Below, in pieces: positions 236 through 16,553 of a stretch of 16,553 nucleotides of DNA. Position 1 is the stretch's first letter. Each line of letters starts with the position of its first letter. The position numbers were made by a program, and so were the translations under genes. Location: contig JAYWGM010000081.1 in the NCBI GenBank assembly GCA_043778225.1, positions 1 to 16,553 of the forward strand, in the 5' to 3' direction. The notes under the pieces are model-generated. The model did no database searches. It saw nothing but the letters and a program-made list of their open reading frames with translations, and was not told the origin of the DNA. The DNA is from Deinococcales bacterium (GTDB lineage: Bacteria; Deinococcota; Deinococci; Deinococcales; JAAFIG01).

Positions 236-1630
236 TTATTTTTCGTCGGTTTCGATACGGTTAAAGCCTTTTGGCGCACCAACTTTATTGGCAATTACTT
301 CCTCGAGGTACTTGACCACATTTTTAAGCGGCACACGGTTCAGCACATCCTCGAGAAACGCCGTGACCAGCATTTTCTCAGCAATGGGTTTGGTAATCCC
401 TCTCGAGCGCAAATAGAACAGTTCTTGTTCATCCACTGGCGCGGTGGTGCTGCCGTGGCTACAACGCACATCGTTGGCGTTAATCTCGAGTTGCGGCACA
501 CTGTCCGAACGGGCTTCGTCGGAAAGCAATAATGTGCGGTTCTTCTGGTAGGCATCGGTTTTTTGTGCGTTTAATTCGACTTTGATTAGCCCCGAAAACA
601 CGCCCCTTGCTTGGTCTGCCAGTACACCCTTAAAGAGCAAATCCGAATGCGCCCGAGGCATAATGTGATGCTGCAAAGTCTGCTGGTCAAAGTGCTGGTC
701 TTTATCAGCAAAGTAAATTGCCAGCATTTCCGAACTCGAATTGGTTTGCAAAGCACTTTGCACCTCGGTTCTGGACAGGCTCGAACCCATTGTTACATAC
801 AAACTATTCAGTACCGCATCCGACTCGAGGTTTGACTTGATGCGCTGAATGTGGGTCACACCACGACCCCAGTTTTGAATTGCCACATAACGCAAATTTG
901 CACCTTTACCAAGGAAAAGTTCAACCACACCAAAATTAGCTGATTTGAGGTCTGGGCTGTCCTGCTCGTCAATATAAGTGACCTTGGCATTCTCCTCGAG
1001 AACCACGAGTGTGCGCGAAGCCACAAAAGCACCGTCCTGCTCGAGATAACGAAAACCACCAAGTGGCAAGTCAAGCTCGACATTTTTTGGCACATACAAG
1101 AAAAAACCGTTCTCCCAAAAAGCAGCGTTTAACGCCGTGAACTTATCTTCGTCCAAATGCGGAATATGTTCATACCGCTCGAGGGCAAGGGCGCTTGGGT
1201 CTGGGTACGCCGCGCCAACCACACTGTACAAATACTTCTGTACAAGGTCTGGGTGTTTCTCGAGGGCGGTTTTGAGGTCTGTAAAAATAACGCCCTTCGA
1301 CTCGAGTTCAGACGGCACATCCGAGTAAATAACAGAATTACCAGACAGCACAATGCGACCAGCCGCATCGGTGCTAGACAAACGCTCACGAATTTTTTCA
1401 GGTAGTGCCTCGAGACTGCTGATTGGGCTAACGGCATTGGCTGGAACGAAATTCTCGGGTTTGAAACGCCGCAGATTCGTGTACTTCCACGCTTCGACTG
1501 CTGTAGAAGGCACAGCGCGGTCAGTGTAAATCTCGAGGGCAGAAGCTCGAGCTTTGAGCAGCCATGCGGGTTCGGCACGGCTCGAGATGGCGGAAAGATT
1601 GAAGGGCGATAGGGTGGTTACTTGGGTCAT
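236..1630 (-). CDS. sufD: Fe-S cluster assembly protein SufD
   Basis: EAWKYTNL N-terminal motif; beta-helix with QKTDAYQKNRTLLLS, PQLEINANDVRCSHGST and LFYLRSRGI. Start placed at ATG 1630 behind an AGGAG RBS (ORF track extends to 1696). Confidence 0.93.
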   Translation of the reverse strand: MTQVTTLSPFNLSAISSRAEPAWLLKARASALEIYTDRAVPSTAVEAWKYTNLRRFKPENFVPANAVSPISSLEALPEKIRERLSSTDAAGRIVLSGNSVIYSDVPSELESKGVIFTDLKTALEKHPDLVQKYLYSVVGAAYPDPSALALERYEHIPHLDEDKFTALNAAFWENGFFLYVPKNVELDLPLGGFRYLEQDGAFVASRTLVVLEENAKVTYIDEQDSPDLKSANFGVVELFLGKGANLRYVAIQNWGRGVTHIQRIKSNLESDAVLNSLYVTMGSSLSRTEVQSALQTNSSSEMLAIYFADKDQHFDQQTLQHHIMPRAHSDLLFKGVLADQARGVFSGLIKVELNAQKTDAYQKNRTLLLSDEARSDSVPQLEINANDVRCSHGSTTAPVDEQELFYLRSRGITKPIAEKMLVTAFLEDVLNRVPLKNVVKYLEEVIANKVGAPKGFNRIETDEK

Positions 1631-1655
1631 GATTGATTTTCTCCTAAAAGTGTTA

Positions 1656-2204
1656 TTACAAGCATCGGTTTTCCGTTTTTCCATCAAAGTAAACATGTTT
1701 TGAAGACACAGCTATAGTTCGGTCATTTGGCGTAAAAAACCCATTTTCTCGTGACAATGAATGGTCACTAAGGCAAGCACCTGCAAATTGACCTGAAGTC
1801 ACATCGTAGACCTGCCATTCCAAAGATGGATTTACACGTCGCGTAATTTGCGAGGCAGGGAATAGATCGTTAGGACGAATCTTAGGGTATTGGATACTAA
1901 AACTCCATTCAGAATTTGGCTCTGTATCAGCTTTTGACAAATCGTAAAAGGTGACATACACGACTTCTCCCACTTCGGGAACATTATAGATTAGTATTCG
2001 AGCATTTTTTATTTTTACCTCTTGAAAAGGGAAATCCTTATATCCATTTGGAGATGAAATCAATCGAGACAATAATTCGTTGACCGAAAAATCCAGTCTA
2101 CTTGCATTGGGCAAATTACCAGAACGAGCATAATAATAACGAGGAGGTTGCATACAAGAAACAAAAAGACAAAGAAGGCATATCACAATTAATTTTTTGG
2201 ACAT
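1656..2204 (-). CDS. Hypothetical lipoprotein (cassette cargo)
   Basis: 182 aa; MSKK, a hydrophobic stretch and a lipobox-like FVSC; no recognisable domain. Confidence 0.65.
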   Translation of the reverse strand: MSKKLIVICLLCLFVSCMQPPRYYYARSGNLPNASRLDFSVNELLSRLISSPNGYKDFPFQEVKIKNARILIYNVPEVGEVVYVTFYDLSKADTEPNSEWSFSIQYPKIRPNDLFPASQITRRVNPSLEWQVYDVTSGQFAGACLSDHSLSRENGFFTPNDRTIAVSSKHVYFDGKTENRCL

Positions 2205-2227
2205 AAAGTTTTCCAGTTTTATCTCGC

Positions 2228-2286
2228 GTAGGATGGGCTTTGCCCATCAACTTATATCCGACTATCTTCTATTTCTTTCTCGAGCC
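2228..2286. repeat. GTAG-REP-containing leader, copy 1 (GTAG-GATGGGC-TTT-GCCCATC) ending in a truncated cassette repeat
   Basis: Perfect 7-bp stem after GTAG (2228-2248); about 59 bp homologous to 4124-4181. Confidence 0.8.
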
Positions 2287-2289
2287 AAA

Positions 2290-2547
2290 TCACCTTTCGT
2301 AAATTTTGCTTCTATGCCCAACAGCGATGAGCGTCACCACCCGTTCTACTTCATTGACATTAAAAATCAGTCTGTAATCACCAACTCGAGTCCGAAATGA
2401 TTGTCGGTCTGTTAATTTAAGTACACCTTGCTTGAATGGATTCTCGAGAATAAGCTCAACTTCTTTAACAACCCTCTTTTGGATTTCCTCAGGTAAATCT
2501 TCAAACTCTTTATTAAAATGCTTGGAAAGTTGTAAAGCAAACCTCAT
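2290..2547 (-). CDS. relE: RelE/ParE-family type II toxin
   Basis: 85 aa with KL...FRTRVGDYRLIF...VGHRSKIY motifs; ATGA overlap with the upstream gene. Confidence 0.9.
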   Translation of the reverse strand: MRFALQLSKHFNKEFEDLPEEIQKRVVKEVELILENPFKQGVLKLTDRQSFRTRVGDYRLIFNVNEVERVVTLIAVGHRSKIYER

Positions 2548-2726
2548 TTTAAGCCCACTCGAGCCTGAAGTTCTTCAAGTGTTGTCGGGATTACTTCGTC
2601 GTTAGCACGTTCAATAAGAATTTGTTTGTGCCATGTCTCCTCGAGCATTTGTTCGTACTCCTCGAGTGGCAGTAAAACAAAGGTATTTCCTGTCTCATCT
2701 GTAATTTGCTGATGGGCTGTAAGCAT
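2544..2726 (-). CDS. Antitoxin partner of RelE (acidic, Phd/YefM-like VLL.LEEYE segment)
   Basis: 60 aa, acidic, translationally coupled upstream of relE, AAGGAG RBS; paralogous to 4463-4708. Confidence 0.75.
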   Translation of the reverse strand: MLTAHQQITDETGNTFVLLPLEEYEQMLEETWHKQILIERANDEVIPTTLEELQARVGLK

Positions 2727-2753
2727 TTTTATACTCCTTTCTTCTATTCTTTT

Positions 2754-2773
2754 CTCGAGCCTTGGCTGCTTGC
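2754..2773. repeat. Cassette-boundary repeat CTCGAGCCTTGGCTGCTTGC
   Basis: Exact consensus copy touching the vapC stop codon (2773-2775). Confidence 0.9.
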
Positions 2774-3180
2774 TAGGTTCTTTCTATCCAATTCTCGAGT
2801 CTCAAACCCCGAATTCTTGCAAAATGCTTTGTATTATCTGTCACCAGTACCGCTTGTTCGTATAAAGCAGTTGCAGCAATTAACGTGTCGGCATCTTCAA
2901 TAAGTTTTCCTTGGGGTTTAAGTTGTTGATAAATTTCGGATGCAGTATCTAAAATTTCTATGTTCAACATAATAATTTCAGCTTTGCTTAGAAAGGCTTT
3001 GAACTTACTAAGTTTTTTCTGGTATTTAGGAAGCGTTAAGCCTCGAGTAATTTCATAATAATTGATTGCGCTGATTATGAAAACATGACCATCATCATGT
3101 AGGAATTCAAGGGTTTTCACAACAACTTCGTTATCCTCGATAATGGCAGAAATAATATTTGTGTCAGGCAAGTATTTCAT
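2773..3180 (-). CDS. vapC: VapC PIN-domain toxin
   Basis: 135 aa with YLPDTNIIS, YYEITRGL, DADTLIAATAL and LVTDNTKHF. Confidence 0.92.
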   Translation of the reverse strand: MKYLPDTNIISAIIEDNEVVVKTLEFLHDDGHVFIISAINYYEITRGLTLPKYQKKLSKFKAFLSKAEIIMLNIEILDTASEIYQQLKPQGKLIEDADTLIAATALYEQAVLVTDNTKHFARIRGLRLENWIERT

Positions 3181-3434
3181 TGATTAGCTGCCCGCCAAGG
3201 TTGGCGTTTTATGGCTTCTTTGAATTCGGCTAAATCTTCGGCTGGCATCGGTTCGGCGAGTTCACGTAGGATTTGTTTGAATTCGTCTTTTTCAGCTTGC
3301 GTTCTTTGCGCTCGAACATCTGGCAAATCTGGATATTTGAAAGCGGGGTCTGAATCAATAACTTTTTTTAGGCGCTCGAGGGTGACTTCGTTCATTTGGT
3401 CTAAGCGTTGTGTAATTTCTTCGCGCATGGTCAT
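3177..3434 (-). CDS. Putative VapB-role antitoxin
   Basis: 85 aa from ATG 3434 (GAGGTG RBS); ATGA overlap with vapC; shares PDVR..RT..E...LAEP with three paralogues. Confidence 0.8.
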   Translation of the reverse strand: MTMREEITQRLDQMNEVTLERLKKVIDSDPAFKYPDLPDVRAQRTQAEKDEFKQILRELAEPMPAEDLAEFKEAIKRQPWRAANQ

Positions 3435-3453
3435 GGTTTCACCTCTGGCTTGA

Positions 3454-3552
3454 TTATAGGGCTTTAGCTCGAGCTTTGAGCAGCCATGCGGGTTTGGCAC
3501 GGCTCGAGATGGCGGCGGGGTTGAACGGCGATTGGGTGGTTAATTGGGTCAT
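3454..3552 (-). pseudogene. sufD: Truncated duplicate of the sufD 5' end (32 codons)
   Basis: Reads MTQLTTQSPFNPAAISSRAKPAWLLKARAKAL*; 3466-3552 matches 1544-1630 at 79/87 nt by hand alignment. Confidence 0.9.
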
Positions 3553-3559
3553 AATTACC

Positions 3560-4072
3560 TCAGAGACTAAAAACATCTTCAATCACAATATTCTTGAATC
3601 GTTCATCGAGATTGAATTTGACGGCTCGTATAACATCTGTTGGAATTGAAAAATAGACAAATAAGCCTTTACTGGAATTTGAATAGAAAGAGACCGATTC
3701 ATCATTATTAAACGAATCTACTGCCCCAGAAATTTGGTATGCAACGAATTTTTTTGAATCTGATGTTTCTATTGACATATATTTTGGTGATAAAATAGCT
3801 GTCACATCTCCTGATAAACTTGTCCAAGAAATGTCACACAGAACTTTAGACTTATCTGTGGGGTTTCGCAAGCAACCAGAAAACTCTACTTTTAGTTTGT
3901 TGCCTCGAGTATCGACATAGGTGATTGACCGCTTCGATTTTTCAATAATTGTTGCGTTACTCGAAGTGTTTGTACTATTGGTCACACTAGGGGATGTTGT
4001 AATCGAGTTCTGATTAGGCATACATCCTGTGAATACCATAGCGCCAATTACAGATATGATAATTTTTTTCAT
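3560..4072 (-). CDS. Hypothetical lipoprotein (cassette cargo)
   Basis: 170 aa; MKK, hydrophobic stretch, lipobox FTGC, S/T/N-rich linker, then a beta-rich domain; GGGAG RBS. Confidence 0.75.
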   Translation of the reverse strand: MKKIIISVIGAMVFTGCMPNQNSITTSPSVTNSTNTSSNATIIEKSKRSITYVDTRGNKLKVEFSGCLRNPTDKSKVLCDISWTSLSGDVTAILSPKYMSIETSDSKKFVAYQISGAVDSFNNDESVSFYSNSSKGLFVYFSIPTDVIRAVKFNLDERFKNIVIEDVFSL

Positions 4073-4123
4073 ATTTTTCTCCCAACACTTTACTTGACTT
4101 CTTTTTCTTGAGTTTCATCTCAT

Positions 4124-4193
4124 GTAGGATGGGCTTTACCCATCGAATTATAGCCGACTATCTTCTACTCTATCTCGAGCCTTGGCTGCTTGC
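4124..4193. repeat. GTAG-REP-containing leader, copy 2, plus a full cassette repeat (4174-4193)
   Basis: GTAGGATGGGCTTTACCCATC at 4124-4144; TATAAT on the minus strand; repeat abuts the relE stop at 4194. Confidence 0.85.
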
Positions 4194-4466
4194 TTATTTA
4201 TAAATATCTTTGCGCCTACCAACTTTTCTTACTTCTAGCACTTGTTCATCTCTTATAAAAATAATTCTTAAATCTCCGACTGCTAAACGATATTGTCCCT
4301 TAAATTCGCCTTTCATTTGCTTTATATCACCCATTGCTTCGGCGCACAGTATCAGCAACGCAGCCCATAGTTGTTCTTGTTCTAAACGTTCTAGCTTCCC
4401 AAATTCTTTAGCAGCTTTCTTAACAAAACGCAGTGCGTATGGCACATCTCGAGGGTGAATACTCAT
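4194..4466 (-). CDS. relE: RelE/ParE-family type II toxin
   Basis: 90 aa with GDIKQMKG...YRLAVGDLRIIF...VGRRKDIYK. Confidence 0.88.
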   Translation of the reverse strand: MSIHPRDVPYALRFVKKAAKEFGKLERLEQEQLWAALLILCAEAMGDIKQMKGEFKGQYRLAVGDLRIIFIRDEQVLEVRKVGRRKDIYK

Positions 4467-4708
4467 GGTTCTATTGGGAAGTTCTTGGGTAGTTCAAGTT
4501 GAGCTTGCAATTCCTCGGCACTGATGGTTTCATTGTTCTGACTTTCAATTACAGCTAGGCGTAAATCAGTTATGGCATCCTCGGTTAATTCTTCGTCGTC
4601 ATGGTCGTAAATACCATTTTGCTTTTTGAAAACCTCGTACTCCTCGAGCGACAAAAGTACAAAAGTTTGACCCGCTTCGTTGGTTAATTTTTCGTGAGCT
4701 GCTATCAT
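4463..4708 (-). CDS. Antitoxin partner of RelE
   Basis: Acidic; MIAAHEKLTNEAGQTFVLLSLEEYE aligns with 2544-2726; alternative start at 4720; ATGA overlap with relE. Confidence 0.75.
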   Translation of the reverse strand: MIAAHEKLTNEAGQTFVLLSLEEYEVFKKQNGIYDHDDEELTEDAITDLRLAVIESQNNETISAEELQAQLELPKNFPIEP

Positions 4709-4762
4709 TAGTTTAACCATCCTTTTTTTGTTTAACTCGAGCTACCTACATTTTATTCTTTT

Positions 4763-4782
4763 CTCGAGCCTTGGCTGCTTGC
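4763..4782. repeat. Cassette-boundary repeat
   Basis: Exact CTCGAGCCTTGGCTGCTTGC, 7 nt from the vapC stop at 4790. Confidence 0.9.
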
Positions 4783-4789
4783 TTATGCT

Positions 4790-5200
4790 TCACATAACGC
4801 CATCTTCCCAGTTTTCAAATCGAATTCCTATTACTCGAGAAAAATGCTTTACATTTCTGGTTATCAGTACGGCTTTATGGCGAATGGCTGTGGCTGCAAT
4901 GAGTGTATCGGAAATCCCAATGTCGTTTCCTGTGCTGGTCAATTCAAAATGGATGCTCGAGGCGGTATCAGCCGCTTCTTTGTCGAACCATAAACAGGGG
5001 TAAGTGTTGGCAAATTGCTCAAGCCGAGCAAGTTTGAGGGCATATTCGGGTTTGAGTAATCCTCGTTTGGCTTCCCAGAAAACGATGGGACTAAGAGTGA
5101 TTCGGTGAAGTTCCTGTACGGCGCGATTCAACCGAGCTTTACAGGCTTGATTTTCATTAATTATTTGTGAAACAAAATTAGTATCTAAAGTGTAAAACAT
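4790..5200 (-). CDS. vapC: VapC PIN-domain toxin
   Basis: 136 aa with YTLDTNFVS, FWEAKRGL, SDTLIAATA and LITRNVKHF. Confidence 0.92.
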   Translation of the reverse strand: MFYTLDTNFVSQIINENQACKARLNRAVQELHRITLSPIVFWEAKRGLLKPEYALKLARLEQFANTYPCLWFDKEAADTASSIHFELTSTGNDIGISDTLIAATAIRHKAVLITRNVKHFSRVIGIRFENWEDGVM

Positions 5201-5440
5201 TTATTTCTCGTATAACCAAGGACGGTCTCGTTTTAAGCCTTCGTTATATTCGGTTAAATCAATTCCAAGTGGTTCTGCAAGTGCTTCGGTAGCATCTAGT
5301 AAGGCTTGGGTTTCTTCTGGTGTCCGATTTTCTCGAATATCAGGGTATTCATCGTTTGCCTGTTCAATTTGCTTGATAAATTCGGCGTACTCAATTGGGT
5401 TTAGATTTTTGACTTGATGGACAATTTCAGCGACTGACAT
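5201..5440 (-). CDS. Putative VapB-role antitoxin
   Basis: 79 aa from ATG 5440 (GGGGG RBS); stop directly abuts the vapC ATG; YPDIRENRTPEE...LAEP motif. Confidence 0.78.
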   Translation of the reverse strand: MSVAEIVHQVKNLNPIEYAEFIKQIEQANDEYPDIRENRTPEETQALLDATEALAEPLGIDLTEYNEGLKRDRPWLYEK

Positions 5441-5482
5441 AAAACCCCCTTTGCTTCTTTGATTGTAACGCTTTTTAATTTT

Positions 5483-5502
5483 CTCGAGCCTTGACTGTTT
5501 GC
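5483..5502. repeat. Cassette-boundary repeat (degenerate)
   Basis: CTCGAGCCTTGACTGTTTGC, 18/20 to consensus. Confidence 0.8.
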
Positions 5503-5511
5503 CAATGCCAA

Positions 5512-5550
5512 TCAATTCTTATAAACCTTGCTCCGATGCCTTACCGTGCT
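5512..5550 (-). pseudogene. C-terminal scar of a deleted RelE-type toxin
   Basis: Reads STVRHRSKVYKN* versus IAVGHRSKIYER* of the RelE at 2290; followed by a boundary repeat. Confidence 0.6.
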
Positions 5551-5964
5551 TTATTCACGGCTATCTTCGATCCAATTTTCGAGCCTGATGTTTGGTACTC
5601 GAGCAAAATGCTTGGTGTTATTCGTAATGACTACTGCTTGATGCCGAATGCCTGTAGCTGCAATTTTGACATCTTCTTTGTCGAGTTGTAAACCTTGTAT
5701 TTCTAAAGTGTGGTAAATATCGGCTGCATACTCGGCAGATAAAGCATCAAAAGGTAAAACCCTGAACTTATTTGTTAATTTTTTTAAGGCAGCTAATTTT
5801 TTGAAAAGTTGTGGTTTTAATAAACCTCGTTTGACTTCAAAGTACGAAACTGCGTTCATGGTGATGTCGTGACCCTCAAAGGCTTTGATATGAACAAACA
5901 TTTCAAGCGCATGATTTTCATTCACAATTCCAGAGATGGTATCTGCATCCAAAGTATAAAGCAC
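5551..5964 (-). CDS. vapC: VapC PIN-domain toxin
   Basis: GTG start at 5964 behind an AAGGA RBS; LYTLDADTIS, YFEVKRGL, EDVKIAATG and VITNNTKHF. Confidence 0.9.
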   Translation of the reverse strand: MLYTLDADTISGIVNENHALEMFVHIKAFEGHDITMNAVSYFEVKRGLLKPQLFKKLAALKKLTNKFRVLPFDALSAEYAADIYHTLEIQGLQLDKEDVKIAATGIRHQAVVITNNTKHFARVPNIRLENWIEDSRE

Positions 5965-5971
5965 ATTTTCC

Positions 5972-6187
5972 TTAACGCTGCATGGCTGCATTGAACAGAT
6001 TTTTTTCTTCTGTGGTCATTGGTGCGGCAAGTTCAGCCAATAACGTTTTGATTTCCTGCATTTCTTCTGGGCTGCGCTCAACTCGGACATCTGGATATTC
6101 GTATGACTCGAGAATTTTGTTCAACCATTCAATTCGCTCAGACGACATTGTTTCTATTTTTTGGTGTAGTTGTTCTTTGGTACTCAT
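5972..6187 (-). CDS. Putative VapB-role antitoxin
   Basis: 71 aa; YPDVRVERSPEE...LAAP; GAGGTG RBS; directly upstream of vapC. Confidence 0.8.
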   Translation of the reverse strand: MSTKEQLHQKIETMSSERIEWLNKILESYEYPDVRVERSPEEMQEIKTLLAELAAPMTTEEKNLFNAAMQR

Positions 6188-6224
6188 GATTTCACCTCTG
6201 GCTTTATTCTAGCGCTTTTACTAG

Positions 6225-6244
6225 CTCGAGCCTTGGCTGCTTAC
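6225..6244. repeat. Cassette-boundary repeat
   Basis: CTCGAGCCTTGGCTGCTTAC, 19/20 to consensus; abuts the stop at 6245. Confidence 0.88.
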
Positions 6245-6469
6245 TCATGCAAACTCGAGTTCGGCTGTTCTGCCCGCACTTGGGTCTTGTTCCACCAATG
6301 CCCGCACTAGCGTCTCGAGCCGCAATGCTACGCCCATACTATGCGCTCTGAGTTCTTCACCATCTGGTAAATGATGGATATGGGTTGGAACTCCTTTTAT
6401 TGTGACATGAACTCCTTCTCGAGTAGTAATTTTATAATCCATTTTAACTTCATTAAGAATTTGACTCAT
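6245..6469 (-). CDS. YgiT/MqsA-like (cysteine-less) putative antitoxin
   Basis: 74 aa from ATG 6469 (AAGGAG RBS); G.V.I.GVP...GEE...VA..LE.L pattern; downstream of a DUF4258-like gene. Confidence 0.65.
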   Translation of the reverse strand: MSQILNEVKMDYKITTREGVHVTIKGVPTHIHHLPDGEELRAHSMGVALRLETLVRALVEQDPSAGRTAELEFA

Positions 6470-6477
6470 TTCGCTCC

Positions 6478-6792
6478 TTAAATTGTATGAACTGTAATAA
6501 CTAAGAAGTTGTTGACCCAAGCCACTTTGGTACGAATCCAGCGCCCATCTGCAATTTTATACTCAAAATTAATTCCTGGAATGCGTTTGTTGGAATTTCG
6601 CGGTAAATCTTTACTTACGGGTGTACCTACTAAAATAGTCTCGAGAACAGCAACAAGTGGAATTTTTTCTTTATTGGCTTCTTCTTGGGCGTGTTCGCTA
6701 ATTTGAATTTCTTGGAAAATAAGGGCTTGGTGAATTGCGTCTAATTCTGATTGGAGTATTTCTGGTGTTGAAAAATTGAATGGGTTTCTCAT
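6478..6792 (-). CDS. DUF4258-like putative toxin
   Basis: 104 aa with ISEHAQEE...I....V.E.I..G and C-terminal LVITVH, typical of DUF4258. Confidence 0.75.
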   Translation of the reverse strand: MRNPFNFSTPEILQSELDAIHQALIFQEIQISEHAQEEANKEKIPLVAVLETILVGTPVSKDLPRNSNKRIPGINFEYKIADGRWIRTKVAWVNNFLVITVHTI

Positions 6793-6881
6793 AAATTATT
6801 ACTTACCAAAACCTTTGTGCGTACAACCTGATCTTTTTTGAGCATTGCACTGATGGTATTAGAATCGAGCAAGTAAATCAT
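6789..6881 (-). pseudogene. vapC: Truncated vapC (first ~25 codons only)
   Basis: MIYLLDSNTISAMLKKDQVVRTKVLVSNNL* carries the PIN N-terminal motif; ATGA-coupled to the upstream antitoxin. Confidence 0.8.
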
Positions 6882-7120
6882 TGAATCTCTCGGCTATGGG
6901 GGCGGCGTTCTAGGGCTTCAAGCAACGGATTAATATTTTCGTTTGGCTGAGTTGCCGTAAAAGCATCTAAACGCTGATTAAAAAGCGCTATTTCCTCTGG
7001 GGTTCGTTGCACTCGCACATGAGCAGCTTGACGATGTTGGGTCAGGAGCGTATTCAACCACTCGAGGTCAGCTTGGCTCATGGTGTCAATGGTTTGTTTT
7101 ACTTCTTCTCGAGTTATCAT
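6878..7120 (-). CDS. Putative VapB-role antitoxin (toxin partner truncated)
   Basis: 80 aa, paralogous to 5972-6187 (I.TMS....EWLN, VRV.R.PEE); same GAGGTGAAATC-ATG leader. Confidence 0.78.
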   Translation of the reverse strand: MITREEVKQTIDTMSQADLEWLNTLLTQHRQAAHVRVQRTPEEIALFNQRLDAFTATQPNENINPLLEALERRPHSREIQ

Positions 7121-7160
7121 GATTTCACCTCTAGCTTTATTGTAGCGTTTTTATGATTTT

Positions 7161-7180
7161 CTCAAGCCTTGGCTGCAAGC
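7161..7180. repeat. Cassette-boundary repeat (degenerate, CTCAAG core)
   Basis: CTCAAGCCTTGGCTGCAAGC, 17/20 to consensus; 1 nt from the stop at 7182. Confidence 0.8.
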
Positions 7181-7181
7181 T

Positions 7182-7406
7182 TTATGTAAACTCGAGTTCA
7201 GCGCGTCTGCCCGCACTTGGGTCTTGGGCTACCACGGCTTTAACCAATGCCTCAAGCTTGAGTGCCACCGCAAAACTATGTGTTTGTAGTTCCTCTCCAT
7301 TTTCGTAATGGCGTAAACGAGTTGGAACACCTGTAATTTTAACGTACACACCTTCGGGAGTGGTCACGTCGTATTCCATTTTGATTTCGTTCAGAATTTG
7401 GCTCAT
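7182..7406 (-). CDS. Orphan YgiT/MqsA-like putative antitoxin
   Basis: 74 aa; 49/74 identical to 6245-6469 by hand alignment; no DUF4258-like gene upstream. Confidence 0.7.
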   Translation of the reverse strand: MSQILNEIKMEYDVTTPEGVYVKITGVPTRLRHYENGEELQTHSFAVALKLEALVKAVVAQDPSAGRRAELEFT

Positions 7407-7454
7407 AGGTTCTACCTTCATTTGGAGTTTAGCGCCTTTGGTTTTTCAAAATCA

Positions 7455-7784
7455 TTATATCATTTCAAGGATTTTATCCGATATAAGTTTTGTTTCAGCA
7501 ATGACTTTTTGTTGTTGGAGTTGACTTTCCCATGTTGTTGCCCAAGTCAATTGCCATTGCGCGAGTTGGATTTGATATTGCACCAGAATTTCTGAAATTT
7601 CAGGTGTTGTTTCAGTAGCAGTCCATTCAATAAAACGTACACTTTCAGCTAATAAGTTTCGTACACTTTCTGAAGTATTTTTCTTGGCAAATACACTCAC
7701 TCGGTTGAGATTAACTGCCAAATTGCCAAGTCGTCTCGAGATTGGGTCTTTAACAAATTTTTCTTTTCGAGCGTATTCGGTCAT
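7455..7784 (-). CDS. Hypothetical helical protein (type recalled as a DUF5674 neighbour)
   Basis: 109 aa, RLGNLAVNLNRV...ES..FIEWTA...Q.QLA.WQ; AGGAG RBS. Family link is from recall only. Confidence 0.65.
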   Translation of the reverse strand: MTEYARKEKFVKDPISRRLGNLAVNLNRVSVFAKKNTSESVRNLLAESVRFIEWTATETTPEISEILVQYQIQLAQWQLTWATTWESQLQQQKVIAETKLISDKILEMI

Positions 7785-7888
7785 GGTTTTACTCCTGCAA
7801 AGAGTTTTGTAACTATTTCTTGGATTTGTTGTCGCAAAGTAGGGTCTTGTACTGGAGTGACTTTTTCTTGAATAATTTGGATGCTCAT
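7781..7888 (-). pseudogene. 35-aa ORF, probable internally deleted DUF5674-like gene
   Basis: MSIQIIQEKVTP-VQDPTLRQQIQEIVTKLFAGVKP*; ATGA overlap with the next gene; looks like the N- and C-termini of DUF5674 joined. Confidence 0.5.
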
Positions 7889-7900
7889 GATGTCCAATTT

Positions 7901-7923
7901 GGGGTTTGCAAAATGCAAACCCC
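7901..7923. terminator. Perfect hairpin after sufB (terminator or mRNA-stabilising stem)
   Basis: GGGGTTTGCA-AAA-TGCAAACCCC, a 10-bp stem 7 nt after the sufB stop; no good U-tract on the minus strand. Confidence 0.55.
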
Positions 7924-7930
7924 TTAAATT

Positions 7931-9361
7931 CTAGCCGACGCTGCCTTCCATCTCGAGTTCAATTAAGCGGTTGAGTTCCACGGCGTACTCGAGTGGGAGT
8001 TCTTTGGCGATGGGTTCGATGAATCCGCGTACAATCAGTCCTGTTGCGGCTTCCTCGGACAACCCTCGAGACATGAGGTAGAACACTTGTTCATCGTTAA
8101 TTTTAGAAACGGTGGCTTCATGTCCAACCGAAGCAGTTTTTTCTTCAATTTCGATGTACGGGTACGTGTCAGTTCGGCTGTCATCATTTAACAAGAGCGC
8201 GTCGCATTCGACGTTGCTTTTGGCATTTTTTGCCCCGTCATAAATTTTGACTAACCCACGGTAACTCGAGCGACCATTGTTTTTGCTAATGCTTTTAGAC
8301 ACGATGCTCGAGCTTGTGTTGGGTGCAAAATGCACAACTTTGCCACCAGCGTCTTGGTGTTGCCCTGTGGTTGCCATGGCAATGCTCAGAATCTCGCCAC
8401 GAGCGCCCGGCTCGAGCAAATACGTGGCTGGGTATTTCATGGTGACTTTGCTGCCGAGGTTGCCATCCACCCATTCCATGACTGCGCCTTCGTAGACGGC
8501 TGCCCGTTGGGTCACAAGATTGTAAACATTGTGCGACCAGTTTTGAATCGTGCTGTAACGCATCCGAGCGCCTTTTTTGACAATAATTTCGATGACACCA
8601 GAGTGGAAGCTGTCCGAGGAGTAACTAGGTGCGGTGCAACCTTCGATGTAATGGGCGTAAGCACCTTCATCAATAATAATCAGGGTGCGTTCAAATTGCC
8701 CAGAATTTTCGGCATTAATCCGAAAATACGTTTGCAATGGCACTTCGACTTTTACACCTTTTGGCACATATACAAAGCTACCACCAGACCAAACGGCGCT
8801 GTTGACGGCGGCAAATTTATTGTCTTCGGGCGGAATGACTGTGCCAAAGTGTTCACGGAAGAGTTCTGGATGTTCACGCATTCCATCTTCGATAGACAAA
8901 AATATCACACCGAGCTTTTCCCATTCTTCTTTCAGGTTGTGGTAGACCATTTCTGATTCGTATTGAGCGCCAACACCTGCCAGCATTCCGCGTTCGGATT
9001 CTGGAATACCAAGTTTATCAAAAGTGCGTTTAATATCGTCTGGAACATCGTCCCAAGTTCGACTGTTGAGCATATCGGTGGGTTTGATGTAATAATAAAT
9101 GTTCTCGAGGTCAAGCCCACTTAAATCTGCGCCCCATTTTGGAATTGGTTTGCTGCGGTAAATGTCGAGCGCTTTCATGCGAAACTCGAGCATCCAAGCG
9201 GGTTCGTCTTTGGATTTACTAATCAGTTCAACCACGTCTCGAGATAAGCCTTTGGGGGCTTTAATCGTGTATTTTTCTGGTTCTGACCAGCCAAATTCGT
9301 AACCATCGTTAATTTTTCCAACGGCGGCATCGGGGATGTTATCGGAGTATTGTTGGGTCAT
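7931..9361 (-). CDS. sufB: Fe-S cluster assembly protein SufB
   Basis: 476 aa with GVGAQYESE, DNKFAAVNSAVWSGGSF, GQFERTLII, YIEGCTAP, HEATVSKI and ELEMEGSVG. Confidence 0.97.
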   Translation of the reverse strand: MTQQYSDNIPDAAVGKINDGYEFGWSEPEKYTIKAPKGLSRDVVELISKSKDEPAWMLEFRMKALDIYRSKPIPKWGADLSGLDLENIYYYIKPTDMLNSRTWDDVPDDIKRTFDKLGIPESERGMLAGVGAQYESEMVYHNLKEEWEKLGVIFLSIEDGMREHPELFREHFGTVIPPEDNKFAAVNSAVWSGGSFVYVPKGVKVEVPLQTYFRINAENSGQFERTLIIIDEGAYAHYIEGCTAPSYSSDSFHSGVIEIIVKKGARMRYSTIQNWSHNVYNLVTQRAAVYEGAVMEWVDGNLGSKVTMKYPATYLLEPGARGEILSIAMATTGQHQDAGGKVVHFAPNTSSSIVSKSISKNNGRSSYRGLVKIYDGAKNAKSNVECDALLLNDDSRTDTYPYIEIEEKTASVGHEATVSKINDEQVFYLMSRGLSEEAATGLIVRGFIEPIAKELPLEYAVELNRLIELEMEGSVG

Positions 9362-9720: not shown

Positions 9721-9762
9721 ATTGCCTCCACTTTGAATTGCCTGCAAAACTTGCTCGAGAAT

Positions 9763-10524
9763 TTAGAACGCAACGACGGGTTGTGCGGCTGCAATAGCTT
9801 TAATTGGTTCGTAGCCGTTTTCCTCGAGTTCTACGGCTAATTCTTTGCCACCAGATTTTACAATGCGTCCATCGACCATGATATGCACCATGTCTGGCAC
9901 AATAAACTCGAGCAGGCGGTTGTAGTGGGTAATCATCAGGGCGCTAAAATTGGCGCTTCGCATCGCGTTGACACCCTTGGCTACAACTTTAAGGGCATCA
10001 ATATCTAAGCCAGAATCGGTTTCGTCCATCAGGGCGCAGCTTGGCTCGAGCATCAGCATTTGCAGGATTTCATTGCGTTTTTTCTCGCCGCCGCTAAAGC
10101 CTTGGTTCAAATAGCGATTGACCCAACTTTCGTCCCAGTCGAGAATCTCGAGGGCGCGGGTCAGTTTTTTATAAAAATCCATAAACTGGACTTCTTGTCC
10201 AGTGCGGGCTTGGATGGCGAGGCGCAGAAAGTTGGCGACCGTCACACCGGGAATTTCGACTGGGTACTGAAACGCCAAGTACAGCCCTTGGCGGGCGCGT
10301 TCGTCTGGCTCAAGTTCGAGGATATTCACGCCGTTGTAAAGTACCTGTCCGCGTTCAATGGTGTATTCGGGTGCGCCAGCAATGGCTTTCACAAGGGTGC
10401 TTTTACCGTTGCCGTTTGGTCCCATAATTGCATGGAATTCACCGGCGGGGACGTGCAGGTTTACACCTTTGAGAATCATTTCGCCGTCTATGCTGACCCA
10501 TAAATCTTTTATTTCGAGGTTCAC
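9763..10524 (-). CDS. sufC: Fe-S cluster assembly ATPase SufC
   Basis: Walker A GPNGNGKST, AFQYPVEIPGV, GFSGGEKKRNEILQ and DETDSGLDIDAL; GTG start with AAGGAG RBS. Confidence 0.97.
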   Translation of the reverse strand: MNLEIKDLWVSIDGEMILKGVNLHVPAGEFHAIMGPNGNGKSTLVKAIAGAPEYTIERGQVLYNGVNILELEPDERARQGLYLAFQYPVEIPGVTVANFLRLAIQARTGQEVQFMDFYKKLTRALEILDWDESWVNRYLNQGFSGGEKKRNEILQMLMLEPSCALMDETDSGLDIDALKVVAKGVNAMRSANFSALMITHYNRLLEFIVPDMVHIMVDGRIVKSGGKELAVELEENGYEPIKAIAAAQPVVAF

Positions 10525-10583
10525 GTTTTTCTCCTTGGATTCGAGCTTTTGGCGGCTCGAGGAATGCTGATTGCATTATGCTA

Positions 10584-10639
10584 TTAGGAATGATTCCTAA
10601 CTAGAGTTTAGATTACATGAGTTAGGCTGCGAATCTCAA
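10584..10639 (-). promoter_or_regulatory. Putative suf promoter with an 8-1-8 palindromic operator
   Basis: Perfect palindrome TTAGGAAT-G-ATTCCTAA at 10584-10600; minus-strand TTGAGA (10639-10634), 18 nt, TAATCT (10615-10610) just upstream. Confidence 0.6.
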
Positions 10640-10747
10640 GTCCATAAGTTGGGTTTTGCTATTCATGACCATGTATGTTGCCCTAGGGCTGGTCTACCAA
10701 GTCTTGAGTTGGGCAACCCCGAGGGACTTTCTGGTTTCGGTTTTGGG

Positions 10748-11344: not shown

Positions 11345-11360
11345 AGATTTTTCTCCGATT

Positions 11361-11996: not shown

Positions 11997-12012
11997 TGTT
12001 TAGATTCTAGCA
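11986..12012 (-). promoter_or_regulatory. Leaderless tetR promoter with an operator over the start codon
   Basis: Minus strand TG-C-TAGAAT, 7 nt, ATG, with no RBS; imperfect palindrome AACTTGACATTGTTTAGAT also found at 13113-13131. Confidence 0.65.
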
Positions 12013-12022
12013 CAATGACCGA

Positions 12023-13027: not shown

Positions 13028-13056
13028 ACGACTTATTCAAACAGCTTTTTGCCTAA

Positions 13057-13077
13057 GTAGTATGGGCTTTTGCCATC
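13057..13077. repeat. Degenerate GTAG-REP copy
   Basis: GTAGTATGGGCTTTTGCCATC versus GTAGGATGGGCTTTGCCCATC at 2228. Confidence 0.6.
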
Positions 13078-13111
13078 GGTAGGTTCTCGAGCCGTGGTTT
13101 GAATAAAAAGC

Positions 13112-13176
13112 AAACTTGACAATGTTTAGATTGTAGTTTATCTTAACACTGTTCAATATCTAAGCATCGTTTAGAT
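13112..13176 (+). promoter_or_regulatory. Sigma70-type promoter with three TetR-like operators
   Basis: TTGACA (13116-13121), 17 nt, TATCTT (13139-13144); related palindromes at 13113-13131, 13140-13158 and 13158-13176. Confidence 0.7.
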
Positions 13177-13196
13177 ATATTCAAAAGGAGAAACTT

Positions 13197-14165
13197 ATGA
13201 AACATGTTATTTTTGGTACAGGACCACTCGGACGAGCCACCATGAACGCCTTACTCGCTCGAGGTGAACAAGTGCAAATGGTCAATCGCAGTGGCACAAT
13301 GCCCAACATTCCCTCGAGCATCAAAGTCCTCAAGGCTGATGCCTATAACCTCGAGAATGCTAAACAAGCGGCTCGAGGTGCAAGTATGGTTTACAACTGT
13401 ACTGCCCCAGACTACAGCACCAAACTCTGGACGACCCAACTGCCGATTTTATGGGGCAATATTCTCGAGGCGGCAGCCAGTCAGAAGGCAAAACTGGTGA
13501 TTGGCGATAATCTTTATATGTACGACCAACTTGGCACAAACATTCACGAAGATTTGCCAATGCAGAGCAGCACAGGCAAAGGAAAAGCCAGAATTGCAGT
13601 GGCTTTGCAAATGCTCCAAGCTCACAAAAAAGGTTTGGTACAAGTTGCTTTGGTGCGCGGTGCAGATTTTTTTGGCGCATATGCCGCCGACCAAAGCCAA
13701 TTTGGAACTCGAGTCATCCCACCGATGCTGCAAGGCAAGTCGGCTCAGATGCTTGGTAATCTCGAGCTTCCACACAGCATGACTTACATTAAAGATTTTG
13801 GTACAGCAATAGTTGCCGTCGCGGCAGCCGAAGATGCTTACGGGCAAGCATGGCACGTGCCAAACGCGCCCACCATCTCGAGACGCGCCATGCTCGAGCA
13901 GTTAGCCCAGATTATTGGGAAGCCACTGCAAGTTCAGGTCATGCCCAAATTCTTGATGTCGGCGCTTGGATTGTTTGTTGCGCCTTTGCGTGAAGTGGGC
14001 GAAATGATGTACCAATTCGAGCAGCCATACATTGTTAATCATGATAAATTTGTCGGTAAATTTGGCGACATCCATACGCCAATGCAAACTTCCCTCGAGC
14101 AGACTGTGGATTGGTTTAGAAGCCTCGAGCCAAAAATCAAAGGCGCATCCACCCAAGCTGCATAA
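13197..14165 (+). CDS. NAD-dependent epimerase/dehydratase (atypical SDR) family protein
   Basis: VIFGTGPLG Rossmann motif, DNLYMY, KGKAR, DFFG and GQAWHVPNAP; AAGGAG RBS. Confidence 0.88.
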   Translation: MKHVIFGTGPLGRATMNALLARGEQVQMVNRSGTMPNIPSSIKVLKADAYNLENAKQAARGASMVYNCTAPDYSTKLWTTQLPILWGNILEAAASQKAKLVIGDNLYMYDQLGTNIHEDLPMQSSTGKGKARIAVALQMLQAHKKGLVQVALVRGADFFGAYAADQSQFGTRVIPPMLQGKSAQMLGNLELPHSMTYIKDFGTAIVAVAAAEDAYGQAWHVPNAPTISRRAMLEQLAQIIGKPLQVQVMPKFLMSALGLFVAPLREVGEMMYQFEQPYIVNHDKFVGKFGDIHTPMQTSLEQTVDWFRSLEPKIKGASTQAA

Positions 14166-14321
14166 TTTTTTTTGAAAATCAAGTGGGATTTTGTACCAGA
14201 CTCGTTCTTTGGTACGACGACACCACGCCACTCAATTTATAGACTCAAATAGTCTTAAATAAAGACATCCAGCACCGTATTTTCTTGAGTGCAAAGTCAA
14301 GTATTGCCATAGGAGAAATGT

Positions 14322-15305
14322 ATGTTACTTACCAATCAACCGTCTAACCCCAATCCGCTCGAACAAGCGTGGAAAACCAATAAATCCTTAACTATTTTAC
14401 TTTTGGTTTGTCTCACCACCATGACCCTGAGCTTTCTTGGTTTATTTATTGACCCACGTCTGACCGAAATTCTGAACACGCCGACTTGGACCAAAACCTT
14501 TAAGTTCTCGATTTCTTTTGCCGTTTATGCCGCTTCTTTACTGTGGGTTTTACCGTTCCTCGAGCCTCGCTTACAAAGAAATGCCGGAATTGCAGTCAGT
14601 ATTGTCAGCAACGCCGGTCTAATCGAAGTGATTTTAATTGCCATTCAAGGATTTCGGGCTGTTCCGATGCACTTTAACGAAACCACCCCTTTCAATACCT
14701 TACTTTGGCAAATCATGACGGTTTCGATAGGTGTTTTGTTATTCAGTTATATCGCTTTTATGGTCATTGCTTGGCGTGGTATCAAAACCAATCCTGTGCT
14801 GGCGTGGGGTATCCGATTGGGTCTTGCTGTGACTCTGATTGGCTTATTGCAAGGCGGTGTGATGACTGGACCAAATTCGATGCAAATCCAAGCGATGGAT
14901 GCTGGGCAAACGTTAAGTATGGTTGGCGCTCATACGGTTGGAAACTCGAGTCTCACACCAGATAATGGTCCTGGACTGCCGCTTTTGGGTTGGAATACCA
15001 CCACTGGCGACCTTCGCATCGGGCATTTTATTGGCTTACACGCGCTACAACTGCTGCCATTTCTTGCCATTTGGCTTTCGCGTCGCCGTGAACTCTGGCT
15101 AACCGATAGATACCGTAACAACCTACTAAGTATTGCTGCATTTGGCTATCTCGGCATGATTGTACTGGTGACATGGCAAGCCTTTCGTGGACAATCGATT
15201 GTTGCGCCAGATTCCCTGACCATTAGTGTTTTTCTTGGGCTACTTGGAAGTGTTGCACTGCTGAGTTTTGGCGTACTTGCTCATGCTCGAGCCAAAAACC
15301 AATAA
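14322..15305 (+). CDS. Multi-pass membrane protein of unknown function
   Basis: About 8 hydrophobic segments; W.K.FKF.IS, HFN, GAHTVG and GDLRIGHFIGLHALQ motifs; AGGAG RBS. Confidence 0.8.
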   Translation: MLLTNQPSNPNPLEQAWKTNKSLTILLLVCLTTMTLSFLGLFIDPRLTEILNTPTWTKTFKFSISFAVYAASLLWVLPFLEPRLQRNAGIAVSIVSNAGLIEVILIAIQGFRAVPMHFNETTPFNTLLWQIMTVSIGVLLFSYIAFMVIAWRGIKTNPVLAWGIRLGLAVTLIGLLQGGVMTGPNSMQIQAMDAGQTLSMVGAHTVGNSSLTPDNGPGLPLLGWNTTTGDLRIGHFIGLHALQLLPFLAIWLSRRRELWLTDRYRNNLLSIAAFGYLGMIVLVTWQAFRGQSIVAPDSLTISVFLGLLGSVALLSFGVLAHARAKNQ

Positions 15306-15470
15306 AAGCATCGTACAAACTTTTTAGTCTGAATTTCAAAAGCAAATTTAGATTGCACTCATCCTTGTTAAGCCTTTAGCCGACTGGATAGTCTCGTTTA
15401 TCTGATGGGGATGGTTGCTTATGGGCTGAGACGCTTTCTACTTTTTTGCTTTTGACCTTATACTCTGCCC

Positions 15471-16124
15471 GTGCCGTATCGCCTAAATCTGACTGCTTTG
15501 TCTACATTTGAACAAGCCCGTTTGCTCGAGCCAAAAGAACGGGCTTCGTTGCTGCTGCCGCGCCTTTTGCGCCGTGCGGTTTTATCGCCCGACGATTACC
15601 CAGACGAACTGAAACTCGAGGTGGCACTCGAGGAACATTGGGATGCACTTGGAGCAAGTATCCAACACGCCTTAAAAGCCAAGGAAGCTCGAGATTTATT
15701 GGTTGGCTTAGATTTTGTCCAAGTCAATGCCTACCGACTTAAAAATATGCCATATCAGCGTAATTTTTTTGCTTATATTAAGGATGCCGATACCTTTGCG
15801 GCGGTTTATTTAGCCGATGCCAGTGGTATTGCGCCCTATGTTGAGATGTTTACGCTTTTCCGCGAAGCCAAAGACGGTAAAATTGGAATTCTGACCTCGA
15901 GTGCAGCCTTAATCGAACTGGACCCAAGCCCAGAACTCCATTTTATTCATTTGCCCGAAAAGCATCCTGAATTGGTTTTCAATTTGCACCGCAGCAAAGT
16001 GATGGAGTTTGGTAAAGCCAACAAGCCAGCCCGTAAGCCAGAGCATTTCGACCATGCCTATTTGGAAATTTGGAATGCCAATTATCAATCTTGGATTGCT
16101 CGAGGTGTCTTAAAGAAAGTCTAA
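15471..16124 (+). CDS. Hypothetical protein (probably leaderless)
   Basis: 217 aa; GTG start 6 nt after TATACT (15459-15464), no RBS. Confidence 0.7.
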   Translation: MPYRLNLTALSTFEQARLLEPKERASLLLPRLLRRAVLSPDDYPDELKLEVALEEHWDALGASIQHALKAKEARDLLVGLDFVQVNAYRLKNMPYQRNFFAYIKDADTFAAVYLADASGIAPYVEMFTLFREAKDGKIGILTSSAALIELDPSPELHFIHLPEKHPELVFNLHRSKVMEFGKANKPARKPEHFDHAYLEIWNANYQSWIARGVLKKV

Positions 16125-16248
16125 CCTTGGGGCGTGTAGGAACTGACCAAGAAAAACTCGTTACAAAGGTAGGCTAGAAAATATGGAACTTTTACTGAAC
16201 TGGAATAAAATCGATTCTAAGAATTCGCGTTACAAAAAAGGAGGTTTT

Positions 16249-16553
16249 ATGCTCATATCGGCAATCCTAGCCACTGCAATAGCATCTTGTGGACAAGCTC
16301 CAATTCAAGAACAACAAACCGAAGCTCGAGGAATGACAACCCAAAAAGATATGATGCTCCACGGAATAGTTGCTGGAACAACTTTTCAAAGTAACCAAGG
16401 TTTTACCTTACAAAATGGCTCGAGTATCCATGCCAATACTGGGTTAATCTTGAACTCGAGGAACATAGTTTTGAATGGTGGTCAAGTCTCGAGTACCAGT
16501 GCTGCCAGTTGCTCGGATAATTCTGGACAAGGTTTTTGCTTAAACGGTAAACC
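16249..16553 (+). CDS. Partial secreted/lipoprotein gene running off the window
   Basis: AAGGAGG RBS then MLISAILATAIASCGQ (lipobox-like), open to the window end; in-frame alternative ATG at 16183. Confidence 0.65.
   Translation, partial: MLISAILATAIASCGQAPIQEQQTEARGMTTQKDMMLHGIVAGTTFQSNQGFTLQNGSSIHANTGLILNSRNIVLNGGQVSSTSAASCSDNSGQGFCLNGK

Follow-up and report, generated by a model that had tools for sequence, protein, structure and literature searches.

CTCGAG, a highly iterated palindrome of an uncultured Deinococcales family, as a candidate oriented signal for AddAB

The palindrome CTCGAG marks the genome of an uncultured bacterium of the order Deinococcales. The stretch of DNA analyzed here (contig JAYWGM010000081.1 of assembly GCA_043778225.1, 16,553 nucleotides in all, called the window throughout) carries exactly 99 copies of the word, the first starting at 302 and the last spanning 16488–16493. 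Three features of the word are new here: its co-distribution with the AddAB helicase-nuclease in the phylum Deinococcota, the presence of a substitute word in the AddAB-positive genome G177, and a crowding of neighbouring sites which depends on their orientation. Taken together, they favour an oriented signal, with AddAB as the candidate reader.

The initial annotation of the window had put the word at roughly 100 copies against about 3 expected, and the exact figures, 99 and 3.0 from base composition, agree with it. Order-1 and order-2 Markov models predict 2.2 and 6.6 copies, and each one-mismatch variant of CTCGAG occurs 0–8 times. By frame, 54 copies encode Leu-Glu, 19 encode x-Arg, 10 lie in the Ser frame, and 16 fall outside the listed open reading frames. 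A Markov-corrected hexamer count, suggested in the annotation as a check, was extended to the source genome (G000: 4.03 Mb, 107 contigs, 48.7% GC, 89% complete). This contains 24,877 sites, or 6.17 per kb, about one per 160 bases, with observed/expected (O/E) ratios of 47.5 (order 1) and 15 (order 2), and of 30–73 in masked Markov models. Every one of the 107 contigs carries the word, at 4.0–10.6 per kb. A longer consensus was sought and rejected, no flanking base being conserved in G000.

Codon or dipeptide usage, the cause which would have accounted for the excess in full according to the same annotation, is rejected by two results. Within-gene synonymous shuffles of G000 yield 1,654, 385 and 326 sites in the three frames, against 13,073, 4,470 and 4,636 observed, so that the excess over shuffled codons is 8–14 fold; and sites are equally dense in non-coding (6.16 per kb) and coding (6.18 per kb) DNA, the occurrence in both types of DNA and in several frames being as first described. 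The word has left an imprint on the proteome: Leu-Glu exceeds expectation more than any other dipeptide (2.33-fold), and 69% of its occurrences (13,073/18,934) are encoded as CTC-GAG. Translational selection is rejected as well, as the probability of the word given Leu-Glu (0.63–0.82) does not drop in genes rich in optimal WWC codons. An artefact of assembly or cloning is also rejected, since sample X2 of the same study is identical over 479–8477, and orthologous sites are conserved in related species. The core of the cyanobacterial highly iterated palindrome HIP1, CGATCG, is depleted in G000 (182 copies, O/E 0.29). Palindromes are avoided in this genome, GGCC occurring 131 times (O/E 0.01); about 30 hexamers have O/E values of 0.1 or less, and nearly all 6-bp palindromes except CTCGAG are affected. 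Four of the six tRNA calls containing CTCGAG are grouped in contig C19 (9937–12769), which suggests an ameliorated tRNA array. rRNA primer motifs had no match in the G000 assembly. Among the viral stretches retrieved by a pattern scan (at least 128), the 12 most enriched in CTCGAG had no blastx match to G000 proteins, and none could thus be linked with this host.

Sites were compared with orthologues from two genomes of the same genus, 369 sets from G193 (fourfold distance ~0.73) and 171 from G188. CTCGAG is favoured at fixation, being created and kept by evolution in the family, with S of about 5 for the word and about 1 for one-mismatch forms. Synonymous losses inside the word, relative to G193, measure 0.09–0.20 at all five positions tested, against 0.4–1.6, mostly 0.5–1.1, at fourfold controls. 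Where the other five letters are kept, the base of the word is found at 91–97% of synonymous positions in both orthologue sets. Loss is lowered alike at every position, with no excess of C-to-T changes of the type expected from 5-methylcytosine. A graded symmetric model gives S of 4.9 for the perfect word and 1.0 for one-mismatch forms in G193 (log-likelihood −4592.9 vs −4612.9 for free gain and loss), and of 5.3 and 1.4 in G188 (−1580.3 vs −1621.8); the two models have equal numbers of parameters, and assume a stationarity to which the counts conform only roughly. Directed mutation, described by a free two-rate fit as a 17-fold gain and a 0.19-fold loss, was dropped because the graded symmetric model fits better overall; the free model is slightly better in one G193 stratum (24–89 bp). 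Collinearity of G000 with the two relatives, at ~75–80% nucleotide identity, extends over a few kb at a time.

Tolerance to changes is graded also within G000. NTCGAG variants are enriched 1.6–1.8 fold, CTCGGG 1.85 fold and CTCAAG 1.64 fold; four internal transversions are found at 0.54–0.78 of expectation. Up to about 24 bp apart, CTCGAG sites tend to exclude each other. Their spacing is near random overall (coefficient of variation 1.0), and pairs closer than ~21 bp are depleted. The probability that Leu-Glu is encoded as CTC-GAG rises with the distance to another site, from 0.31 at 6–11 bp to 0.43 at 12–17 bp, 0.59 at 18–23 bp and ~0.77–0.81 at 96–180 bp, and a shared neighbour within 24 bp lowers S from ~5.2 to 3.7. 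The longest gaps between sites mostly correspond to low-GC islands, and CTC-GAG is used by 3% of Leu-Glu pairs at 30% GC, against 72% at 50% GC.

The spread of the word was assessed in 201 genomes of Deinococcota, including the groups f2 to f5, the genera g2 and g3, which are taken to be Deinococcus and Thermus, respectively, judging from number of genomes, their size and gene content, and the 19 genomes of the family of G000. The latter is an uncultured family of Deinococcales, according to the placement of its sufB gene. Close CTCGAG pairs number 1,169–4,824 in all 19 members, against 0–3 for the reversed pattern, and 16 of 16 uncultured Deinococcales loci carry 4.7–7.8 sites per kb across 45–59% GC; the proposal of a lineage-wide iterated palindrome is upheld by these data. 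In the phylum, close pairs are common in several genera of f3, f4 and f5 as in one f2 genome, G178, and rare in g2 and g3. Loci from named Deinococcus (n = 26) hold 20 CTCGAG in 500 kb, and exhibit no bias. In Thermus-like genomes TCGA is avoided outside CTCGAG, which accounts for 83–96% of TCGA in each of four genomes and for 51% when 29 loci are pooled. All 30 Thermus-like genomes (L096–L124, g3 and kin) encode an M.TaqI-like methyltransferase. Other words emerge at the top of codon shuffles in some members of the phylum, as CAAGAG in G121 (29 vs 8; L479, L502), which shares C..GAG with CTCGAG, and CTTTCC/GGAAAG in Thermus-like loci (287 vs 93). In the literature that could be searched, most subscription papers and bioRxiv supplements being beyond reach, there is no report of CTCGAG over-representation in Deinococcota, and no Chi site is named for Thermus or Meiothermus.

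The CTCGAG bias follows AddAB in the phylum sample. In G000, addA (contig C79, 31168–33813, plus strand) has its best NCBIfam matches in addA/recB, below cut-off, and addB (contig C32, 43473–45914, minus strand) matches Pfam ADDB_N over cut-off, its N-terminus aligning to B. subtilis AddB (3u44_B, E 0.005). The two genes (loci L431, L482) reside on separate contigs in G000, and are adjacent in G188 and many relatives. AddA was found in 18 of the 19 family members, the missing case being a 57% complete genome, and in 109 of the 201 genomes of the phylum: 56/57 in f3, 9/9 in f4, 39/40 in f5, 2/92 in f2 and 0/83 in genus g2. AddB has nearly the same spread, with the exception of a miss in G193 and of three weak matches in g2. 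Eight of the nine AddA-negative genomes sampled (G174, G179, G115, G111, G091, G063, G113, G191) lack the CTCGAG bias, and G012 is a further unbiased case. Among AddAB-positive genomes the bias ranges from extreme to little. Deinococcus is described as devoid of addAB in PMC11143384, which also reports that T. thermophilus AddAB is strongly active on incoming DNA. A genetic system is available in which deletion of addAB raises transformation ~100-fold (PMC9751324, PMC11143384).

Two f2 genomes are AddAB-positive. G178 carries CTCGAG in excess (107 vs 31 expected). In the second, G177, 57 kb of coding DNA include 2 CTCGAG, 12 being expected, and 294 copies of the non-palindromic word CTCTGG/CCAGAG, against 69 expected; the latter lies in all frames, at ~5 per kb (loci L436, L462–L464, L486). 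Close CCAGAG pairs are 967 in G177, and at most 92 in any other of the 201 genomes. CTCTGG is strict at the 3′ end and free in the 5′ base (1.7–2.2 fold). Both CTCGAG in G000 and CTCTGG in G177 tolerate a changed 5′ base, and they share an enriched intermediate, CTCGGG (1.85 fold and 4.2 fold, respectively).

Lacking the symmetry of CTCGAG, the G177 word reveals the orientation of crowding. Close pairs in the same orientation number 454 and 513 (967 in all), those in opposite orientation 927 and 852 (1,779 in all), about 929 being expected per class, so that the former are about half as many as expected; in the loci examined, the deficit is gone beyond 50 bp. For 80 control hexamers in G000 the ratio of same to opposite pairs is at least 0.87 (median 1.56), and control hexamers pooled in G177 loci give 259:195. 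An asymmetry of the same type is found in G000 around 5′-DTCGAG half-sites, which have 371 full sites 7–24 bp away on the 3′ side and 483 on the 5′ side (p 1.4e-4), in coding as in template orientation. Chi readers enter DNA from the 3′ side of their word, and a deficit on the 3′ side is the one expected if the reader enters from there. Orientation-specific crowding is what a reader travelling along one strand would be expected to produce, and is unexpected for a duplex-binding dimer or a methyltransferase. CTCGAG and CTCTGG are probably read by a directional reader of some kind.

A dimeric DNA-binding protein, such as a nucleoid organiser, covering ~20 bp, with a lattice of sites kept by selection as proposed for HIP1, would conform to the perfect palindrome, the steep crowding below ~24 bp, the equal densities inside and outside coding DNA and the graded tolerance to mismatches; selection and a role in chromosome structure have been inferred for HIP1 (Xu et al., PMC5861425). 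The hypothesis is quite unlikely, as the substitute word in G177 is no palindrome, sites in opposite orientation do not exclude each other as steric occlusion would have them do, spacing in G000 is near random, and no candidate protein is at hand. The orientation effect could alternatively arise if close direct repeats were purged by slippage or deletion, the abundance of the word having some other cause. Pairs in the same orientation are direct repeats indeed, and scars in the gene array of the window, described below, start at CTCGAG. Ordinary hexamers show an excess of close direct repeats, though, and rearrangement joints are not enriched in the word genome-wide; since purging would leave both the bias itself and the one-sided asymmetry of half-sites unaccounted for, it is highly improbable.

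According to the model of Elhai for HIP1, a CTCGAG methyltransferase, coupled to methyl-directed or very-short-patch repair, could create and protect the sites. Searches were made with an M.TaqI-like enzyme from G043 and with an enzyme from G014 presumably of the PaeR7I-like type, the target specificity of both probes being assumed. The former matches 33 and the latter 13 of the 201 genomes, none in the family of G000, in which the best match reaches 32% identity. About 20 methyltransferase-like genes are present in G000. When the loci returned by the two probes and four Pfam families were clustered, no methyltransferase cluster was common to all family genomes examined; these searches left out the MT-A70, EcoRI-type and phage Dam-type families, and the G000 assembly is 89% complete. 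C5 methyltransferases were not found in G201 or G206, N6/N4 enzymes in the single-contig genome G216, nor N6/N4 or D12 matches in G178. The XhoI endonuclease profile PF04555 has no match in G000, and the control had no match anywhere either. The link to an XhoI/PaeR7I-type methyltransferase, advanced in the initial annotation, is not supported for the family. The presence of MutL in G000 (motif scan), the high gain and low loss of the first two-rate fit, and the orphan CTCG(m6A)G enzymes listed for three Thermales species, Marinithermus hydrothermalis, Meiothermus ruber and M. chliarophilus (Blow et al., PMC4752239 S3 table), speak for such a mechanism. The even reduction of loss without C-to-T excess, the better fit of the graded symmetric model, and the lack of probe matches, of a common cluster and of the enzymes sought in G201, G206 and G216 make it very unlikely. 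In addition, no CTCGAG enzyme appears for M. silvanus in the list of Blow et al. (PMC4752239), and CTCGAG still has an O/E of 3.8 on a plasmid of this species.

The patterns described suggest, tentatively and at somewhat less than an even chance, that CTCGAG is a Chi-type stop signal of the AddAB of this lineage. The enzyme would degrade broken or incoming DNA ends until it meets CTCGAG, and there hand the 3′ tail to RecA. The word would be read on one strand and in one direction, a palindrome serving both directions at once, and a second site in the same direction just behind the first would add little. DNA provided with the word would lose less in repair and win recombination more often, which would drive its frequency up; foreign islands would remain without the word until ameliorated, and exchanges in the array would tend to start at CTCGAG. 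The broader scenario is still more tentative: a palindromic Chi of Deinococcota AddAB would have spread to one site per 160 bp and reshaped the proteome, a sister lineage would have moved to CTCTGG via CTCGGG, and Deinococcus would have lost both enzyme and word.

The word could also be an oriented signal for DNA uptake or entry, recognised in single-stranded form by proteins of competence or conjugation, and accumulated through biased uptake as the DUS of Neisseria and the USS of Haemophilus. Such a signal would be fixed with the same graded bias, leave its footprint in the proteome, be missing from low-GC islands and crowd according to orientation, and the near absence from G000 of GGCC and most 6-bp palindromes fits frequent DNA exchange. 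Known uptake sequences measure 9–12 bp and occur about once per kb, and T. thermophilus is not known to prefer any sequence in DNA uptake, both of which count against the hypothesis. HIP1 raises transformation in Synechococcus 7002 (bioRxiv 2024.09.10.611283), and a role in uptake was suggested for it in PMC13756078; Deinococcus, however, is transformable (PMC11143384) and has no such word. An uptake signal is, all considered, unlikely.

Several observations weigh against a Chi-type signal of AddAB. The AddB protein of G000 features a cysteine cluster at its end and no clear nuclease motif in the C-terminus (PDDEXK_1 below cut-off). AddAB presence is not sufficient for the bias: CTCGAG is close to expectation in the AddAB-positive genomes G187 (20 vs 17.8), G059 (20 vs 13.9) and G086 (66 vs 45.9), measures 1.1–1.7 fold by codon shuffle in these as in G121 and G065, and is below expectation in Thermus-like loci (139 vs 219). 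Conversely, G047 has no addA or addB match, yet retains the Thermus-like CTCGAG pattern. About two independent losses underlie the co-distribution, those in the Deinococcus clade and in the 2.1-Mb genome G174, and many other genes went with them. The switch of word is known from one genome, G177, in which strand polarity is weak in three 20-kb blocks (64:43, 43:51, 49:41), and the half-site asymmetry in G000 (0.77) reaches no further than the 2.5% tail among control hexamers taken singly. CTCGAG also departs from known Chi sites, as it is palindromic in most of the phylum, far above codon usage, and enriched to a level that they do not approach. Chi words in the literature lack palindromic symmetry and often point along the direction of replication (89.7% in S. 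aureus), a property that is undefined for a palindrome. Subramaniam and Smith attribute the abundance of E. coli Chi to codon usage and regard computational Chi prediction as inadequate (bioRxiv 2021.07.08.451572).

In the window, CTCGAG starts at positions 302, 350, 402, 485, 824, 995, 1040, 1178, 1259, 1301, 1409, 1532, 1546, 1581, 2279, 2385, 2443, 2558, 2640, 2661, 2754, 2794, 3042, 3375, 3468, 3503, 3904, 4174, 4448, 4643, 4736, 4763, 4834, 4956, 5483, 5598, 6107, 6225, 6254, 6314, 6418, 6640, 7061, 7108, 7191, 7735, 7952, 7988, 8065, 8265, 8307, 8411, 9104, 9185, 9238, 9388, 9754, 9823, 9907, 10045, 10147, 10556, 11048, 11126, 11204, 11279, 11457, 11553, 11601, 11718, 11912, 11922, 12026, 12083, 13086, 13258, 13313, 13350, 13372, 13464, 13708, 13761, 13877, 13893, 14094, 14124, 14559, 14945, 15286, 15525, 15615, 15627, 15688, 15896, 16099, 16325, 16419, 16455 and 16488. 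All the genes named below are on the minus strand. sufD (SufBD family, 236–1630; Pfam SUFBD_core E 1e-78, start set by alignment with relatives) and sufB (7931–9361, the gene used for lineage placement) flank an array of small modules of the toxin-antitoxin type and cargo genes (1656–7930), which includes 32 CTCGAG. An ABC ATPase (9763–10524, Pfam ABC_tran) is probably sufC, judging from position and family. Pfam identified one ParE and three PIN toxins in the array; the remaining open reading frames are unnamed or weakly matched. Content and order of the array differ in eight relatives, and L006 has no array. The sufB-sufD interval is a lineage-wide insertion hotspot of shuffled modules (L003–L005, L007, L008, L010, L013, L014); arrays in the hotspot usually end in a low-GC cargo gene, and no integrase was found in the window.

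A 33-nt junction repeat (family D1) is present in seven copies at 2267–2299, 2742–2774, 4162–4194, 4751–4783, 5471–5503, 6213–6245 and 7149–7181. Each copy directly follows the last stop codon of a module; six contain CTCGAG (at 2279, 2754, 4174, 4763, 5483 and 6225), and the last reads CTCAAG. The 21-nt core of the repeat, with up to two mismatches, was found in this contig only. Of 33 array spacers, 18 have CTCGAG after the stop codon; elsewhere in the genome the count is 248 of 1,052 (Fisher p 2.4e-4, spacers not being independent). The tail of one array gene is orphaned in three of nine copies, of which two begin exactly at its CTCGAG and one ~6 bases before. The 5′ end of sufD is duplicated, on the minus strand, at 3458–3556 (88% identity to 1536–1634), and homology stops 2 bases past the CTCGAG at 3468. 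The junction repeat is also where modules meet in related strains from run X3. From spacers, orphan tails, sufD duplication and strain joins it follows that exchange in the array tends to fall at CTCGAG, mostly within a longer repeat, as most junction sites lie inside shared repeats of 21–33 bp.

The assumption that CTCGAG may supply the microhomology used by the array is supported in part, by spacers, orphan tails and the sufD duplication, with the reserve that the longer repeat is mostly involved, and does not extend to the genome. Enrichment of breakpoints at the word, to be looked for according to the initial annotation, was not found genome-wide: CTCGAG is present at 10 of 79 rearrangement joints (10.2 expected; four joints are the same DNA in two overlapping loci, and L184 was excluded as repetitive) and at 1 of 346 ends of recent duplications (2.1 expected). 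CTCGAG as a genome-wide recombination hotspot is rejected on these grounds. About twice the expected CTCGAG is found 0–6 bp inside alignment ends, a surplus that conservation of the word can explain. A scan of array breakpoints (83/547 vs ~17 by naive expectation) was not counted as evidence, as shared repeats and motif conservation inflate the count. A 57-nt repeat at 2215–2271 and 4111–4167, with a similar sequence at 13066–13078, follows two array modules; its hairpin core, GATGGGCTTT...CCCATC, is probably that of a repetitive extragenic palindrome (REP)-like element.

To our knowledge, the mechanism behind HIP1 has been unsettled for three decades. CTCGAG offers cultured carriers, a candidate reader in AddAB, a natural switch of specificity between CTCGAG and CTCTGG, and a genetic system. 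If the proposed mechanism is true, CTCGAG added to constructs could improve genetic tools for Deinococcota, HIP-type words as a class could instruct enzymes that process DNA ends directionally, and a genome carpeted with a stop signal and the discarding of the enzyme would be two answers to the loss of DNA ends. Counting pairs in same and opposite orientation is a cheap way of telling over-represented words with a directional reader from words bound as duplex sites.

CTCGAG may be compared with four known systems. It resembles the uptake sequences of Neisseria and Pasteurellaceae in its drive-like accumulation, proteome imprint and rarity in recently acquired DNA, and differs from them in being shorter, denser and, in the family of G000, palindromic. 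The orphan CTCG(m6A)G enzymes of Meiothermus and Marinithermus (Blow et al. 2016, PMC4752239) share both word and phylum with it; the probe enzymes of these classes are patchy in the phylum, and were not found in the family of G000. In the parts of that paper covered here, CTCGAG clusters are discussed for Nocardia only. CTCGAG is a real HIP-like word, denser than HIP1, and is not HIP1. Like HIP1 (GCGATCGC) and the alternative HIPs of cyanobacteria (Elhai 2015, PMC4390886; Xu et al. 2018, PMC5861425), it is a palindrome residing in coding and non-coding DNA beyond codon usage, with sites conserved between genomes, one-mismatch forms favoured, outer positions more tolerant, and another word in some lineages. 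Its density in G000 is 6,170 per Mb, against 300–2,700 per Mb for HIP1 (PMC4390886). In contrast to HIP1, it is a different word in a different phylum, no cognate methyltransferase was found family-wide, the substitute in G177 is not palindromic, and crowding is orientation-specific, a trait not met in the HIP1 literature covered (parts of PMC4390886 and PMC5861425). Chi words include AGCGG in B. subtilis, GAAGCGG in S. aureus, GCGCGTG in L. lactis and GCTGGTGG in E. coli (bioRxiv 2021.07.08.451572). CTCGAG resembles these in that it is a short word with a matching AddAB in the genome and statistical signs of one-directional reading, and the G177 word is tolerant at the 5′ end and strict at the 3′ end.

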